From contig CM000151.3 of NCBI GenBank assembly GCA_000004695.1, forward strand, positions 4,000,001 to 4,064,000: a stretch of 64,000 bases of DNA. Reading direction: 5' to 3'. The notes under the pieces were generated by a model. The model was not told where the DNA came from. It saw only the letters and a program-made list of their open reading frames with translations, and did no database searches. This DNA comes from Dictyostelium discoideum (taxonomy: Eukaryota). Positions 12,481 to 63,390 of this stretch are shown here, one piece after another (position 1 is the first letter of the stretch; every line of letters begins with the position of its first letter). The translations under genes and the position numbers were made by a program.

Positions 12481-22919
<10,439 letters not shown>

Positions 22920-47768: not shown

Positions 47769-48905
<1,137 letters not shown>

Positions 48906-48984
48906 TTATATTTATTTATTTGATTATTTTTTGAATTGATTAAAAAAAAAAAAAAAAATTTCATTTTTATAATTTCAGAAACCT

Positions 48985-49026
<42 letters not shown>

Positions 49027-49027
<1 letters not shown>

Positions 49028-49104
49028 AAAATAAAATCCCATTTTTAAGGCGTGTGACACCCATGGTTTGAAAATTTCAATCAAATTCAAATAACTTTAC
49101 TACT
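49027..49104 (-). promoter_or_regulatory. Conserved actin upstream element (AGTAAAGTTATTTGAA[A/T]TTGATTGAAATTTTCAAACCATGGGTG…GGGATTTTATTTTTATTTT), copy A, ~130–200 bp 5' of the ATG.
   Basis: The same ~75-nt block lies upstream of all four actin copies: 49027–49104 (rc), 53308–53391 (rc, with an internal ~20-nt duplication), 53491–53565 and 55717–55790. Confidence 0.6.
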
Positions 49105-49392
49105 AAAAAAAAAAAACCCACTTTTTATTTAAAAATTTCTTTTTTAATTAGGCAAAAGAATATCAATTCCTTGTTTATTATTTGAATTTTAGGAAAAAAA
49201 AAAAAAAAAAAAAATAATATTATTTTTTTATCAATATCTATTTTTTTATATAAACATATTATTCCTCAAAATAAAAAACAACCATACAAAAAAAATATAT
49301 ATATATTTTTTTTTTTTTCAAAGTGTTAATATGAATGAACTATTTATAGATTATTAAAATATACATAAATATTTTTTTAATTTTTTTAAATA

Positions 49393-49423
<31 letters not shown>

Positions 49424-49950
49424 TTAAAATTAATTAAACTTTATGGTTTTTCTAGATTTTGATATAAAACCCGAACGACAGTGTGTTTTTACATTTTTTT
49501 TATTTTTTATTTTATTTTTTTTTTTAATTTTATTATTTCGTGCAACTCTGAAAAAATAAAAACGACAAGTTTTTATAAAATATCTTTTTTTTGATAGGCA
49601 GTGAAAAAGTTTTTAATCGATTATTTTCAAAGGATTGGACAGTTTTTCTTTTAAATGGGGCAAATCTGTAAATTTCAGGGTATATATAATCAGATTATTA
49701 AGATTATTTTACTTTTTAGTTTTGAATAATTTTTTAAAAAATAAACCACCAAAAATTCCAAATTTCAAAGTACACCAGTTTTTTTTATTTTTTTTATTCT
49801 TTATTCTTTTTTTTTTCTTTTTTATTTTTTTATTTTTATTTTCCGGAACACGAATCAGAATAAAGAAAAATAAAAAAAAAAGAATAAATAATTAATATTA
49901 ACATAGATTTTTTTTTTTTTTTTAATAAATAAATAAATAATAAAAAAAAA

Positions 49951-51858
49951 ATGAAATTTAAATTAATTATTTTTATAATAATAATTTATATTATTAAAAT
50001 TTTAAAAAGTGAAATATTAAATGAATTTGGTTATGGATTAGTAGATGAAAATTTAAAATGTTTATCTTTTATTGGAGATTCAAATAATCAACAATTATGT
50101 AATAATAAATTAATAAATAAACAATTAATATATAGTACAATTAATAAATCAAATCAAATTCAAAGTTTAAAAATGGTTGAACAATCATTTAAACAATTAA
50201 CATTTTTACAAGGAAAATGTTTAAATTTAAATTTTGCTCAATTTGGAATTTGTGATATTTATTTCCCATCGTGTGTTGAAACAAGTTTTGGAATTTCTTT
50301 ACCAAAGAGATTATGTAAATCAGTTTGTAAACAAATTGTTACCGATTGTCCAACACTTGGAGTATCATTAAATTGTTCAGATTCAAATAAATTTCCAACA
50401 ATTGGTACTCTTTACAATTTAACAAAATATGGATATACTGAAAATAATGGATTTTATCAAGTAGAATGTTCAAATCCAACAAATTATTATTATAATGAAA
50501 TAAATTCAACAAATAATCAATTTATTGAAATTTGTCCAAGCCCATTAGTTTTAAGAAATCAGTCTGATTCAAAATATGGAGAAGATAAAGGTTATACATA
50601 TTTATCACCAACAAATTGTGTACTTGGTTGTCCTCAACCATTTTTTAAAAATAATAAATGGGTACAAATGTATAAAATGTCAATAGTTTTATCAACATTA
50701 AGTTTTATTTGTAGTATTTATAATATTATAACATTTGGTTTACTTTCAAAATTAAAAAGTAAATATAATTTATGTATTACCTTTTTTTCAGTGTCAACTG
50801 TTTTAATGAGTTTAATGGATATTGTAACATATGGTATTGGTTATGAAGAATTATTATGTCCTGAATCAGGTAGATATGCCATTCAATCTGATGTTGCATG
50901 TGGAGTTACAGGTGCTTTCTTTCATATTGGTATTACAACTGGTGTTCTATGGTGGACAACAATGTCAATTTGTTTATACTCTGAAGTTAAAAGATTTAAA
51001 ATGATTAGTTTTAGATATATCATAATTTTCAACTCTGTAATTAGTTTAATACTTTTAATAATACCTTTATCTGGACAAGCTTTTATGAGTGGTAATGGAT
51101 CATTGGGATGCTGGATTAGAAAAACTTGGTATGCAAATGGTACTTTCTGGATTCCTTGTGGTATTTCATTATTTATTGGTGCAATTTGTATTGTTTTAGT
51201 AATTTATGAAATTTTTAAAATTTCAAGAAACCTTTCAAAAGATAACAAACCATTAATGTTTCAAATTAGACCATTCCTTTGTGTATTGTTAGTTGGTGGT
51301 TCATTTTTATATTTATTCATTTTTTATTTTAATAATGAAAGAAATCTTGATAAATATAAAGCTGCAATTCCAAGTTATGTTCAATGTTTATTATCATCCG
51401 ATGAAAATGGTGAAGATTGTTTAACTGATGGCCCTGGATTTGGAGCTTATTTTACCTTTTATTTCTTTACTAGATTATTTGGTATCACTTCTTTTTCTAT
51501 TTATGGTACTTCAAAAATTGCAAGAGATATCTGGTTTGAATCAGCTTATAATCATCCATTCTTTAATCCTTATATTGTTAAATGTTTATCTTTACTTGGT
51601 ATTAGTAAACATTTCAGTTCAAATAGTATTAGTGGTTCAAACCAAAAAAGATTTAATCGTAATGGAAGTAATTTCAATATGAAACAAAATAAATCAAATC
51701 CTAATGATTCAATTTCCCTATCAGTGGTTGAATCAACGAAAAAACAAGATACTGAAAATGAATTAGAAAGTAACATAGAAACAAAAGAAAATCGTAGTAC
51801 TGATATTAGTATTGAAAATACTACTTCCTCAAAAGATTCAAATACTAATAGTTTTTAA
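49951..51858 (+). CDS. Frizzled/smoothened-like (fsl family) receptor: signal peptide, Frizzled-type cysteine-rich domain, 7 TM helices, S/N-rich C-terminal tail; 635 aa.
   Basis: Signal/TM start MKFKLIIFIIIIYIIKILKS. The CRD Cys pattern is C-x7-C…CLNLNFAQFGICDIYFPSCV…LPKRLCKSVCKQIVTDCPTLGVSLNC. At least 7 hydrophobic segments are present (MSIVLSTLSFICSIYNIITFGLL; ITFFSVSTVLMSLMDIVTYGI; GVLWWTTMSICLY; IIIFNSVISLILLIIPL; FWIPCGISLFIGAICIVLVIY; FLCVLLVGGSFLYLFIFYF; YFTFYFFTRLFGITSFSIYG). Single exon. Confidence 0.75.
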   Translation: MKFKLIIFIIIIYIIKILKSEILNEFGYGLVDENLKCLSFIGDSNNQQLCNNKLINKQLIYSTINKSNQIQSLKMVEQSFKQLTFLQGKCLNLNFAQFGICDIYFPSCVETSFGISLPKRLCKSVCKQIVTDCPTLGVSLNCSDSNKFPTIGTLYNLTKYGYTENNGFYQVECSNPTNYYYNEINSTNNQFIEICPSPLVLRNQSDSKYGEDKGYTYLSPTNCVLGCPQPFFKNNKWVQMYKMSIVLSTLSFICSIYNIITFGLLSKLKSKYNLCITFFSVSTVLMSLMDIVTYGIGYEELLCPESGRYAIQSDVACGVTGAFFHIGITTGVLWWTTMSICLYSEVKRFKMISFRYIIIFNSVISLILLIIPLSGQAFMSGNGSLGCWIRKTWYANGTFWIPCGISLFIGAICIVLVIYEIFKISRNLSKDNKPLMFQIRPFLCVLLVGGSFLYLFIFYFNNERNLDKYKAAIPSYVQCLLSSDENGEDCLTDGPGFGAYFTFYFFTRLFGITSFSIYGTSKIARDIWFESAYNHPFFNPYIVKCLSLLGISKHFSSNSISGSNQKRFNRNGSNFNMKQNKSNPNDSISLSVVESTKKQDTENELESNIETKENRSTDISIENTTSSKDSNTNSF

Positions 51859-51892
51859 AAATATTTTAAATAAAATTGTATATATTGTATAG

Positions 51893-51950
<58 letters not shown>

Positions 51951-52061
51951 TGATTGGATAAAGATCAACAACCATTTAAAGATTTAAATTATATTTTATT
52001 AAGGTTTTATTATTATTATACATATATTATATTATAAATGCTCATTGCAAAAATTAATTAT

Positions 52062-53198
<1,137 letters not shown>

Positions 53199-53275
53199 TT
53201 ATATTTTATTTATTTTAGAGTTTTAAATTATGAAAAAAAAAAAAAAAAAATTTCATTTTATGATTTCAGAAACCT

Positions 53276-53307
<32 letters not shown>

Positions 53308-53309
<2 letters not shown>

Positions 53310-53391
53310 AAAATAAAAATAAAATCCCACAGTTTGAAAATTTCAATCAGTGGGTCTGAAAATTTTTGTCAATTTCAAATAACACTGAATC
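53308..53391 (-). promoter_or_regulatory. Conserved actin upstream element, copy B (variant with an internal insertion).
   Basis: Matches copy A's element except for the insertion gtgggtctgaaaatttttgtc. Confidence 0.55.
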
Positions 53392-53490
53392 CATTTTTTT
53401 TTTTCAAAATTTTCTTTGAAATTTAATGGAGATTTTGAATATAAAAGTTTTATTTATTTTTTTTGGGAAAAAAAAGGTGTTTTTTTTTTT

Positions 53491-53565
53491 AGTAAAGTTA
53501 TTTGAAATTGATTGAAATTTTCAAACCATGGGTGGTTTCTCGCTTTAAAATTGGGATTTTATTTT
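53491..53565 (+). promoter_or_regulatory. Conserved actin upstream element, copy C.
   Basis: Identical to copy D's element apart from one or two bases. Confidence 0.6.
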
Positions 53566-53682
53566 TATTTTTTTTAATTTCATATTTTTTTTTTTTTTTT
53601 TTTGTTTTCTTACCCTATAAATAAATTTTTTTTTTTTTTTTTTTTTTTCATAATTTTAAACTCTAAAATAAATAAAATATAA

Positions 53683-54819
<1,137 letters not shown>

Positions 54820-54961
54820 ATTTAAAAAAATAATTTTGCAATGCGCATTCATAATATATGTATAGTAATAATAATAAAACCTTAATAAAATATAATTCAA
54901 ATCTTTAAATGGTTGTTGATCTTTATCCAATCACTTTAAAAAAAAAAAAAAAAAAAAAAAT

Positions 54962-54992
54962 TCTATATAAAAATAATTATTTTAAATTTCAT
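54962..54992 (-). pseudogene. Truncated remnant of the frizzled-like gene's 5' end (ATGAAATTTAAAATAATTATTTTTATATAG…), 9 codons then a stop. It lies at the breakpoint of the inverted duplication.
   Basis: 54968–54992 is the reverse complement of the fsl start ATGAAATTTAAATTAATTATTTTTAT (49951–49976) with one substitution. It is followed at 55080–55450 by an inverted copy of the fsl upstream region 49440–49910. Confidence 0.7.
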
Positions 54993-55716
54993 TTTTTATT
55001 TTTGTTTATTTATTTATTTAATTTTTAATATTAAAAGTTATTAAAAAAAAAAATATATGTTAATATTAATTTTTTTTTATTTTTTTTATTTTGCTTATTC
55101 TATTCGTGTTCCAGAAATAAAAAAATAAATAAAAAAAAAAAATAGAATGAAAAAAAATAATAAAATAAAAGTTTGGTGTATTTTGAAATTTGGAATTCAG
55201 AGGTTTATTTTTAAAAATTACAAAAACTAAAAAGAAAAATAAAAAGGAAAAATCTTATTAATCTGAAAATTACAGATTTGCCCCAATTTAAAGAAAAATT
55301 ATCCAAAATAATCAATCAACAACGATATCTTTTTGATAGATATTTATAAAAACTTTATCTTTTTTATTTTTTCAAAGTTGCGCAAAATAATAAAATTAAA
55401 ATAAATATAAAAACTGTAAAAAGAAAAAAAAAAGTGTAAAGGTTTATTAATTATTTAATTATTATTCACTTTTTGTAATTATTTTTTTATTTTGAAGAAT
55501 AATGATGGATATTTTATATAAAAAAAAAAAGAGATATGAAAAAATAATAATTATAAAAAAAAAAAAAAAAAATAGAATTTTAAAGTTTTAGTACAAATGG
55601 ATGATTTTTTTTTTTTTTTTTTTTTTTTCCTAAATAATTCAAGTAATAAACAAAGAATTGATATTCTGATGCCTAATTAAAAAAGAAATTTTTAAATAAA
55701 AAATGGGTTTTTTTTA

Positions 55717-55790
55717 AGTAAAGTTATTTGAAATTGATTGAAATTTTCAAACCATGGGTGGTTTTTCGCTTTAAAATTGGGATTTTATTT
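55717..55790 (+). promoter_or_regulatory. Conserved actin upstream element, copy D.
   Basis: See copy C. Confidence 0.6.
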
Positions 55791-55909
55791 TTATTTTTTT
55801 ATATTTTTTATTTTTTATTTTTTTTTTTTTTGAGGTTTCTGAGATTATAAAATGAAATTTTTTTTTTTTTTTTAATTAATTCAAAAAATAATCAAATAAA
55901 TAAATATAA

Positions 55910-57046
<1,137 letters not shown>

Positions 57047-57177
57047 ACAATTAAAACCAGTGATGAAAGTGCTTCTCACACTTAACAATATAATATTTAT
57101 ATGTATAATAATAAAATCTCAATAAAATATAATTCTTATTTTTATTTTTGAATGGTTGTTGATCTTTATCCAGCCAT

Positions 57178-57211
<34 letters not shown>

Positions 57212-57448
57212 CAAATGAAACTATTAATTTTTTTTTTTTTAACCCAAAATTCCTTTATTGTAATTTGTATTATCGTTAAATAACAAAATAATATATATTT
57301 TTTTTTTTTTAAAAAAAACAAAGTCTTTGTAATTCAATTATATGATTGATTTTATTATTAATTTTTTATTTATTTTATTTTATTATTATTTACAATTTTT
57401 TTATTTTTATTTTTTAAAAAGTGAATATATCTTTTTTTTTTTTTTTTT

Positions 57449-58614
57449 TTAAAAGTAAACAGTTTTTACATTTGATAAATTTTGTTCAGCAGGACAATAT
57501 GGACATTTAAAACGATTTGAGGAACCTTTTAATAAACGTTGCATTGAATTTTTACATAATAGATGACCACAAAATAACATAACAGGAGGATTTTGAGAAG
57601 TACTTTGTTCTCTACTGACAGGACAAGCGAAAACACTATGAAATTTATATTTTTCATCGACATTGATTTCAACGGTTAATGAATCATCATTTACACCCTT
57701 CAATACACTAAATGATGATAACTTTAATAGGGTTGGTAAAGATTTGATACCAACGGTAATGGTTATTGATAAGGGTGATTCTTGAGGTAACCCCATTAAA
57801 GAGCAATTATCCCTCGAGAATGTATTTCTAATTTCAAACCATTGATCATCGATTGATTGTTGTTCAAAAATATCTTTATAGGGTGATTGATCTAACCTCT
57901 TGGCAAAGAGGAATGTACCCATCAATTGTTGAAGATCTTTCATATGTGTCGTTGAGAACTCTTCGAGATAATCTCTTGCATATTGTAAAGCATCGTCTGA
58001 TTTTTGATTCTTTAACAATTGTATAATATGTAACCTATGTAATTTAAACTCTAAACTACTATCAATACTTGATAAACCTTCTCTATGTAATCTACACCAT
58101 TCAATCACTGGTTTCAAATTGAATTGTTCAATTGATTCCAATATCTTATGATGCTCTATAAAACAATCCTTTATTGAGATTGCCACCTTTTTATCAATAC
58201 CAATTTCATTTGCAAATATATCACCAATTTCAAATTTACCAACTCTATATAAATGATTTAATATAACTTTATTTAAAATTTTTGTATCAAATCCAATATC
58301 TTTTGTTGATTTTTCAATATCATTTCTAAAATTCTAATTTATATAATAATATTAATATATCATTACAAAATAAAATAAAATAAAATATTAATATATCACT
58401 ACAAAATAAAATAAAATAAAAAATTTGTAATTAAATTATATTTACTTTATCTACTAATTTACCAAATTTAGAAATTGGTGCATGTAATTCTTTATGTTCG
58501 CTAACTAATTTAGTACATAATTTAGAATCTATTAAAGATTGATTTAATTTTGAAATTGCTTTTGGTATTATATCATTTGTTGTTTCAACTATCATTTGAT
58601 CATCATCATTATTG

Positions 58615-61463: not shown

Positions 61464-61567
61464 CTGAAAAAAAAATAGAATAAAAAATAAAATAAAATAA
61501 AATATGTATGTTTTGAAATTATATTTATTTATTAATAAATGTTAATTTTAAGATTGGTAATTATAAT

Positions 61568-62080
61568 CTATTTGTAAGCATTGAGAGTTCCAGTTTCAAT
61601 TACACTAATTACTCTATTTGAACGATTTGGAGTTTGATGATTCCAAGTTGAGTTTTTCATTTCTTTTGCTGCTTCAGCCCACTTTTTTTCTTCAATTAAT
61701 TTTAATGACATTTTAAAAGTTAAAACATTGTTTACACCCATTTGGAAAACCATATTGATTATAGCCATTTTACGAATATTATCTAAATTTTTATAAATTG
61801 TTGATAATGTTGGATTACTCTCAATTGATTTTGTGGCTACAGATAAATCCTTTTCAAATAAAGCTTCTGATTCTGAACTTGTAATTATTGGTTCATTTTT
61901 TGAATCCATTTTTACCTTATGACCAATTTTTTCTTCAAGGGATAAGATAGCAGCATTTCTTTCTTTAATTCTTGTAATTAAATGACCAATTCCAATTGTA
62001 TAATAACCTTCAGTATCTTTATACATTTCTAACTTTTCACCCTCATCATATTTTAACATATCTTTTATTGAAGAAACCAT
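61568..62080 (-). CDS. Phage-T4-type lysozyme (GH24), copy 1, 170 aa.
   Basis: Near-colinear with T4 lysozyme as remembered: [37 protein letters not shown] ~ [46 protein letters not shown] ~ [17 protein letters not shown]…[28 protein letters not shown] ~ RWDEAA…[28 protein letters not shown]. The catalytic Glu (in YDEGEKL), Asp (in YKDTEG) and Thr (in YTIGIGH) are present. Confidence 0.9.
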   Translation of the reverse strand: [170 protein letters not shown]

Positions 62081-62692
62081 TCTTTTTTAAAATTATTTAA
62101 TTAAAAAATATATTTTAATTGAATAATGGATTATATATATTTTTTTTTAATTTAAATAGGGAAAAAAAAAAATATATTATTTAAAAAAATAAGTTATTAA
62201 TTGAATTTTTAAGTAATTTATTATTATAAATGAATTATTTTTAAATTCATTTAATTGAATTATAAAAATTACAAATTTAAATTTTTTGCACCCACCCTTA
62301 ATTATAGTATTTTTAAATGCTGAATATTGTTTGTGTTATTAATGAATAATTGAATATAATAATTAAAATTGAATAATTATATTTTTTTTTTTTTTTTTTT
62401 TTCAAAAAAAAAAAAAAAAAAAAAAAAAATAAAAACAATATATTTAAATTTAAAATAAAATATTCCAATATTTATTTCTATTATATAAAAAAAATGAAAA
62501 AAAAAAAATTTAATAATTTGTTCAATAAAATATTGTATTTCCTCTGTAAATAATTATTTATTTATCTTTTTCATAAAATTAATTTTTTTTTTTTTTTTTT
62601 TTATTTTTCTTATAGAATTCTCCAAGTATAGGCTATTTACAGTTGAACCGATTATTTATTTATTAATATTAAACAAGTGTACCAGTTGTGAT

Positions 62693-63205
62693 CTATTTGT
62701 ATTCTTTGAGAGTTCCAGTTTCAAATACACTAATTACTCTATTTGAACGTTTTGGAGTTTGAGTATTCCAAGTTGAATTTTTTAATTCTATAGCAGCTTC
62801 AGCCCACTTTTTTTCTTCAATTAATTTAAGAGATTTTTTAAATTTTGAAACATTGCTAGCACCCATTTGAAAAACCATATTTGCCAAAGCCATCTTACGA
62901 TTTGAGTCCAAATTATTATAAATTGTTGATAGGGTTGAACTATTTTCAATGGAATTAATGGCAACTGATTTATCTTTTTCAAATAAACTCTCTGATTCTG
63001 AACTTGAAATTTCTGGTTCTTTTTTTGAATTCAATTTAACCGTATGGCCAATTTCACCTTCAAGAATTTTGATTGCTTCATTTTTATCTTTATTTTTGGT
63101 AATTAAATGTCCAATTCCAATAGTATAATTACCTTCAGTATCTTTATACATTTCTAACTTTTCACCTTCATCATACTTTAACATATCTTTTAATGAAGAA
63201 ACCAT
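62693..63205 (-). CDS. Phage-T4-type lysozyme (GH24), copy 2, 170 aa, a tandem paralogue of copy 1.
   Basis: [37 protein letters not shown]…[11 protein letters not shown]…[28 protein letters not shown]. The same catalytic residues are present. The 3' coding ends of the two copies are nearly identical at nucleotide level (…gagagttccagtttcaa[a/t]tacactaattactctatttgaacg[a/t]tttggagtttga…). Confidence 0.9.
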   Translation of the reverse strand: [170 protein letters not shown]

Positions 63206-63390
63206 TATTTTTTATTTATTTTTTTTATTTAAAATTTATTTATTTATATATATATATATAATTATTTAATTATTTCCAATTGTATGTGTGTATGTGTGTA
63301 ATATATTTTTTTTTTTTTCAATCCTATTAAATAATAACCCCACAAAAAAAATAAAAAATAAAAAAATTAAAAATAAAATAAAATTAAATT

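Follow-up and report, generated by a model that had tools for sequence, protein, structure and literature searches.

The analysed stretch, referred to here as the window, comprises 64,000 nt of Dictyostelium discoideum chromosome 2 and has a G+C content of 22.8%. Four actin open reading frames (ORFs) of 376 codons each are found in it, at 47769-48899 (-), 52062-53192 (-), 53689-54819 (+), and 55916-57046 (+), and the four encoded actins are identical. In the initial annotation they had been labelled actA, actB, actC, and actD. The genes act20, act21, act19, and act6 are assigned to chromosome 2 in Table 2 of Joseph et al. 2008 (PMC2441452), and the spacings of the ORFs in the window (4293, 1627, and 2227 nt) as well as their strands match those in that table, so that actA, actB, actC, and actD correspond to act20, act21, act19, and act6, respectively. 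Between act20 and act21 lies a single ORF of 635 aa (49951-51858, +), whose product is identical to FslC (Frizzled and smoothened-like protein C; UniProt Q86J18, XP_643987.1) of D. discoideum AX4. In the Pfam search, FslC scored 32.4 bits for the Frizzled seven-transmembrane domain (PF01534; cutoff 22.3) and 24.6 bits for the N-terminal Fz cysteine-rich domain (PF01392; cutoff 32.1). A search of the available literature library found no paper mentioning fslC. Along the window, the order is thus act20(-), fslC(+), act21(-), act19(+), a remnant of fslC (-), and act6(+), with act21 and act19 standing head-to-head as an ancestral inverted pair whose centre falls at about 53384-53496.

The remnant lies between the ORFs of act19 and act6. 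It had been annotated as the fossil 5' end of an fsl gene, made up of the reading MKFKIIIFI* and ~450 bp of upstream sequence, inverted between actC and actD, and both the reading and the colinear alignment bear this out. The segment 54958-55440 (-) is inverted and colinear with 49488-49977, i.e., with the first 27 nt of fslC and ~460 nt upstream of them. In a self-BLAST run without low-complexity filtering, which matched 55440-54958 to 49488-49987, the identity between remnant and parent was 77.1% over 528 columns with gaps counted (E-value 1e-62), while for aligned bases only it was 83% by MAFFT and 84-91% in pairwise alignments, depending on the gap penalty. The alignment with 49440-49980 that the annotation had proposed is therefore colinear at 77.1% identity or more, as opposed to the identity below ~70% or the lack of colinearity that it had named as speaking against homology. 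The local alignment score was 417, compared with 49 ± 7 for 200 dinucleotide-preserving shuffles (z = 53), and none of the 208 real AT-rich segments taken from the window as a control exceeded 102.

The coding stub (54966-54992, -) is identical to nt 1-27 of fslC at 26 of the 27 positions. Read from 54992 to 54963 on the minus strand, it gives ATG AAA TTT AAA ATA ATT ATT TTT ATA TAG, and its single difference, at nt 13 (A versus T), is an ancestral state common to D. cf. discoideum and D. dimigraforme. The reading frame is disabled, as nine codons are followed by TAG and 1881 of the 1908 nt of the coding sequence (CDS) are gone. Upstream of the stub, the copied promoter and 5' UTR (54993-55440, -) are homologous to 49488-49950, with many indels and a long private branch. 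The homology does not end there, but runs past 55440, first weakly through a shortened and strongly diverged copy of the middle of the act20-fslC intergenic region (55441-55603, -; counterpart of 49219-49487) and then at ~90-94% identity to 48900-49218 through the act20-type 5' flank of act6 (55604-55915, +). Therefore, the entire act20-fslC divergent intergenic region (48900-49950 in the parent) was copied and not only ~450 bp of it. Altogether, homology covers ~920 bp upstream of the fslC copy and continues into the neighbouring actin at both sides, which shows that the copy arose at the DNA level and not as a retro-copy.

The abrupt end of the coding homology had been read as a duplication breakpoint located within the first 30 nt of the fsl CDS. 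This is contradicted by the bases that follow nt 27, which match the 3' flank of fslC. When written in the orientation of fslC, the remnant reads ATGAAATTTAAAATAATTATTTTTATA-TAGAA-T23-AAAGTGATTGGATAAAGATC, while at the corresponding point the 5' end of the parent reads ATGAAATTTAAATTAATTATTTTTATA followed directly by ATAATA. The 3' flank of the parent, 31 nt past the stop codon, reads ...ATTGTA-TAGAA-T54-AAAATTGATTGGATAAAGATC and runs into the 3' end of act21. In other words, nt 1-27 of fslC are joined straight to the last bases of its 3' flank. The junction TATAGAA (54961-54967, -) equals 51888-51894 of the parent 3' flank, and its TA (54966-54967), which overlaps with the 5' homology, represents a microhomology. 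The stop codon of the stub (TAG, 54965-54963) is accidental. Next to the junction, an A23 run (54938-54960) is the counterpart of the T-run that starts at 51895 between the fslC 3' flank and the 3' end of act21, and beyond this run the 3' UTR of act19 (54820-54937, +) is of the act21 type (93.6% identity to the act21 3' UTR). Everything past nt 27, from TAGAA through the homopolymer run to the act21-type 3' UTR, is thus sequence from the opposite end of the parent gene. The window contains 140 homopolymer runs of at least 12 nt, only two of which are flanked by TAGAA, namely those at the junction and in the parent 3' flank.

As both ends of fslC are kept at the junction and an act21-type UTR adjoins it, the middle must have been deleted from a once-complete inverted copy. 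The parent interval absent from the remnant is 49978-51889 (+), i.e., 1912 bp consisting of 1881 of the 1908 CDS nt and 31 nt of 3' flank. Judged from the sequence, the end of the remnant at nt 27 very probably represents the junction of a 1912-bp internal deletion and not a duplication breakpoint. The 3' side of the junction itself is a short piece of evidence, of just 5-7 nt, that is strengthened by the adjoining act21-type UTR and by a second pseudogene described below. The junction is common to all four D. discoideum assemblies, unchanged in L001 and with one extra TA in L009 and L010, indicating that the deletion is older than the divergence of these strains.

The flanks of the actin genes place the ends of the duplication elsewhere. 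The 3' UTRs pair act20 with act6 and act21 with act19; those of act21 and act19 are of the GCAATGxGCATT type, while those of act20 and act6 belong to a separate type common to both (AGTGATGAAAGTGCTTCTCACAC). The 5' flank of act19 is orthologous to that of the third actin in related species and its 3' flank is of the act21 type. Conversely, act6 has a 5' flank of the act20 type, whereas on the 3' side both its UTR and the DNA beyond are orthologous to the relatives' third actin, as seen in CACACTTAA..., TTATTTTTATTTTTGAATGG..., and CCAAAATTCCTTTATTGTAATTTGTATTAT. The third actin of D. cf. discoideum is colinear with act19 from the left (51929-54960) and with act6 and the CTLH gene from the right (55698-58380), and relative to this region the window holds ~2.3 kb of extra DNA. 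Both act19 and act6 are thus chimeras, with act21 as the source of the 3' part of act19 and act20 as the source of the 5' part of act6. The resulting order is a mirror image, act20(-) fslC(+) act21(-) on one side and act19(+) psi-fslC(-) act6(+) on the other. Based on this flank typing, the inserted block is an inverted copy of the 5' part of act20, the intergenic region, fslC, and the 3' part of act21. Both ends of the duplication fall within actin CDS, a hallmark of events mediated by homology.

Within the actin CDS, 45 variable sites were found when the four actins of the window were compared with those of D. cf. discoideum. These sites are species-specific and not orthologue-specific; at most of them, the D. 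discoideum paralogues share one state and the D. cf. discoideum paralogues the other, indicating that the actin genes are under concerted evolution. Mapping of the crossovers in the actin CDS by diagnostic sites was attempted, but the points were not recoverable because gene conversion has erased them.

To compare the locus among relatives, fslC orthologues were located by protein search in D. cf. discoideum (L004), D. citrinum (L005), D. firmibasis (L006), and D. dimigraforme (L007). In D. cf. discoideum, D. firmibasis, and D. dimigraforme the order is act(-) fslC(+) act(-) act(+), followed by a CTLH/RING gene. Neither the remnant nor a second fslC start is present in any of the four loci, each of which carries three actins. 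Assembly collapse as the source of the three-actin state of D. cf. discoideum was considered and is unlikely, given a 4.7-Mb contig and the same state in three other species. In D. citrinum (L005, 6700-19500), the act-fslC-act-act cassette is inverted relative to its CTLH/RING and HlyIII/cyclophilin flanks, as judged against D. discoideum and the three other species, and the inversion break points are in the outer inverted actin genes. This flipped cassette is what a recombination of the two outer actins, which are inverted relative to each other, would be expected to yield.

A second fslC pseudogene (psi-L) was found in two other D. discoideum strains, L009 and L010, which have five actins and an fslC CDS that is 2.5% diverged from that of AX4. 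It lies between two tandem minus-strand actins, at 13209-14328 in L009 and 13217-14340 in L010. The extra spacer of L010 consists of an act20/act6-type actin 5' flank, diverged fslC upstream sequence, and the 3' end of fslC. The last ~150 nt of the fslC CDS are kept in psi-L together with the 3' flank, including TGTATAGAA and the T-run, and this 3' part is 81-91% identical to 51692-51915 of the window. The deletion in psi-L differs from that in the remnant, as it removed roughly the interval from -240 to CDS nt ~1745 and left neither a proximal promoter nor an ATG. The different end points show directly that fslC is duplicated as a whole at this locus and that the copies afterwards decay through internal deletions independent of one another. 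The flanks of psi-L resemble those of act6 on the 5' side and act19 on the 3' side. The arrangement suggests that psi-L may have originated as a mirror-image copy of the right arm at a time when neither deletion had yet occurred.

The age of the duplication was approached through the fslC-proximal block of the promoter. In this block, the remnant is 82.6% identical both to the functional AX4 copy and to the D. cf. discoideum orthologue, while the two functional promoters are 91.1% identical to each other. With D. citrinum as the outgroup, the site patterns (16 : 3 : 3) favour the grouping ((functional AX4, D. cf. discoideum), remnant), with 30 private changes in the remnant and nine in each of the two functional copies. 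The remnant is also approximately equidistant from both functional promoters under three gap-penalty settings. In a neighbour-joining tree of all copies, built on computed distances with bootstrapping, the remnant copies were monophyletic (100%) and inside D. citrinum (100%). In 85% of the replicates, they branched off outside a clade uniting every functional promoter of D. discoideum and D. cf. discoideum, while the alternative grouping of the D. discoideum functional promoters with the remnant received 1%. These results are suggestive of a duplication about three times as old as the split between AX4 and L010, at or before the split from D. cf. discoideum. However, long-branch attraction and homoplasy are serious risks for such dating, as the DNA is nearly 90% A+T and the alignments depend on the gap settings, and as an alternative to an early duplication, long-branch attraction in AT-rich DNA may have misled the tree. 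If the duplication is older than the D. cf. discoideum split, D. cf. discoideum has lost the remnant again. Recombination between act19 and act6 as direct repeats would restore the three-actin state of this species precisely.

Taken together, the remnant is most probably an unprocessed pseudogene of fslC that arose as a whole inverted copy and then suffered the 1912-bp deletion. From the end products, we infer the recombination mechanism and the following order of events. The ancestral locus would have had the order act(-) fslC(+) act(-) act(+). Recombination or template switching between the inverted actin repeats would then have placed an inverted copy of the act20 5' part, the intergenic region, fslC, and the act21 3' part in the third actin. 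By this insertion, act19 and act6 would have arisen from the two parts of the third actin, and the existing act21/act19 palindrome would have grown outward. The redundant fslC copy would subsequently have lost the 1912 bp in a single deletion at the 2-nt TA microhomology, after which 27 nt of CDS remained, together with ~920 bp of DNA upstream and 5-7 nt of the 3' flank. Gene conversion would since have kept the actin units similar to one another, whereas the fslC promoter, now orphaned, would have drifted. In agreement, the actin-proximal flanks and UTRs are ~90-97% alike, well above the orphaned promoter, and this likeness fits conversion tracts reaching a few hundred bases beyond the actin CDS.

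Two routes could have led to the inverted copy. In the first, template switching or break-induced replication would have proceeded from the third actin to the inverted act21, through fslC, and back via act20. In the second, unequal crossing-over would have taken place between the standard cassette and its flipped isomer. Both routes explain the end product equally well, and the data cannot separate them. A crossover between the plus-strand actins of the two isomers gives exactly the order act20-fslC-act21-act19-fslC'-act6, and the flipped isomer does exist, being fixed in D. citrinum. The two fslC copies could in that case have been diverged haplotypes already when they were joined, and this would explain why the remnant seems older than the split between D. 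discoideum and D. cf. discoideum. We nevertheless regard the inter-isomer origin of the whole copy and its later deletion as rather unlikely, since both isomers would need to have coexisted in the D. discoideum lineage, the affinity of the remnant is with D. discoideum and D. cf. discoideum and not with D. citrinum, and the predicted end product is identical to that of the inverted duplication between actin repeats described above.

The remnant contained no ORF of at least 60 aa, no gene called by an independent annotation, and no tRNA or Rfam match. AX4 and L010 differ by 7.2% in the remnant and by 4.3% in the functional promoter, and the branch of the remnant is 3-5 times as long as that of the functional copy. 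Overall, the remnant has diverged 1.7-5 times faster and accumulated 2-3 times as many indels, which argues against a conserved function. The L010 copy lacks an additional block of the proximal promoter. From the rate of decay we infer that the remnant has probably retained no function. A contrary view would be that it was kept as a working element, which might act on act6 as an upstream enhancer or bidirectional promoter, or might give rise to a short non-coding transcript. Its persistence, with a shared junction, throughout the four D. discoideum assemblies, the survival of a few short blocks such as GGGGCAAATCTGTAA and GGAACACGAAT, and the fact that act6 is an expressed gene (PMC2441452) would fit such a role. 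However, we consider it improbable in view of the long branch, the 1.7 times higher between-strain divergence, the excess of indels, and the block missing in L010, and also because the locus works without the remnant in the three-actin relatives. In addition, the conserved act6-proximal 312 nt are actin-type and not fslC-type sequence. The initial annotation had stressed that an fsl promoter now stands divergently upstream of actD; its position is as described, but the juxtaposition is not a new one, since the block was inherited whole from the act20-fslC pair.

The least probable explanation, which we judge very unlikely, is the insertion model of the earlier reading, in which a 2.3-kb unit of act20, the intergenic region, and ~27 nt of fslC was inserted inverted downstream of act19; it accounts for the ~2.3 kb by which the locus exceeds that of D. 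cf. discoideum, about as much as the segment 47644-49987 spans, and for the fslC CDS homology stopping after 27 nt, but it is at odds with the act6 3' UTR and downstream flank, which are orthologous to the ancestral third actin and not to act20, with the act21-type and non-ancestral 3' UTR of act19, with the rare TAGAA of the fslC 3' flank at the junction, and with the fslC CDS 3' end kept in the second pseudogene of L009 and L010, and its rescue needs two extra gene-conversion tracts with coincident boundaries.

An unprocessed pseudogene within a repeat-mediated inverted duplication is a well-known kind of object. Like other unprocessed pseudogenes in segmental duplications, the remnant was copied together with its promoter and flanking genes, its ORF was destroyed, here by a large internal deletion, and its substitutions and indels accumulate faster than those of the parent. 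It differs from the usual cases in being reduced to 27 of 1908 CDS nt, hence its appearance as a breakpoint, and in lying within a palindrome, the arms of which consist of actin genes homogenised by gene conversion. The ends inside pre-existing inverted homologous genes, the chimeric boundary genes, and the mirror-image order of the actin locus resemble palindrome growth mediated by inverted repeats, i.e., by non-allelic homologous recombination, template switching, or break-induced replication, the mechanism being deduced here from the end products. The inverted isomer in a sister species and the variation in actin copy number from three to five are also reminiscent of flip-flop inversions between inverted repeats. 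As to the Fsl receptor family, the parent is FslC itself, while the remnant encodes no receptor and is no functional member of the family.

The genes act20, act21, act19, and act6 are the chromosome 2 members of the Act8-group actin clusters, with identical proteins (PMC2441452). In the study of Joseph et al. 2008, analysis of the flanking DNA yielded no further information on the actin duplications (PMC2441452), whereas here the flanks, the fslC remnant, and the sister genomes together allow the duplications of four of the 17 D. discoideum actin genes with identical proteins to be traced explicitly. The fslC relic and the reconstructed history of the locus may be undescribed so far, though they are unsurprising. 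Existing in three-, four-, and five-actin as well as flipped states, the locus offers a natural case of palindrome growth, concerted evolution, and precise reversal. A joint reading would be that the actin-repeat palindrome drives inversion, gain, and precise loss of actins and of the passenger fslC among very close relatives; should the tree be correct, the duplication would have preceded the split between D. discoideum and D. cf. discoideum and would have been reversed by act19-act6 recombination. We put this forward only tentatively. A bolder extension is that the orphaned fslC promoter may give act6 a regulatory input that the other actins are without.

For annotation, the locus is a caution that an apparent duplication breakpoint can be a deletion scar, and that the bases just past the end of homology, together with sister genomes, can reverse the inference of a breakpoint. 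The upstream DNA of act6 beyond ~310 bp is fslC-derived and does not represent actin promoter. The 'actin 6 promoter', taken from act6, is widely used, and the fslC-derived part may matter when fragments of it are chosen for vectors. A literature search on this fragment found only papers using the promoter, and the fragment boundaries were not found in them.

Several minor observations were made in the window and at the related loci. Between act20 and fslC, at 49470-49700, unusually G+C-containing blocks such as CGAACGACAGTG, GATAGGCAGTGAAAAAG, and GGGGCAAATCTGTAA are conserved out to the D. citrinum and D. dimigraforme orthologues, and they may be promoter elements of fslC or act20; no tRNA or Rfam family was found in the conserved blocks of this intergenic region. 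Sub-threshold Rfam matches to mir-3533 (53-55 bits, gathering score 104) were seen inside actin CDS only, at 52305-52388 (-) and 54493-54576 (+), and most likely reflect an actin-derived family model and no miRNA at these sites. The contig of another D. cf. discoideum assembly (L008) stops within the second actin of the locus, a pattern that fits a break in the assembly at these repeats. In D. dimigraforme, the gap between the head-to-head second and third actins, which are only ~500-700 bp apart in the other species, holds ~4 kb of extra DNA with a called 202-aa gene (L007, 15284-16528) that has no Pfam match. Long imperfect short-period low-complexity tracts are typical of Dictyostelium, and such repeat arrays, with many overlapping self-BLAST matches, occupy 16807-17895, 2434-2904, and 18387-18619 of the window. 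Self-BLAST also revealed a direct repeat (61566-62089 and 62691-63214; 83.7% identity), and the counterpart of the region 61566-63214 in L001 and in D. cf. discoideum (L004) carries tandem 170-aa phage-type lysozyme genes (PF00959).
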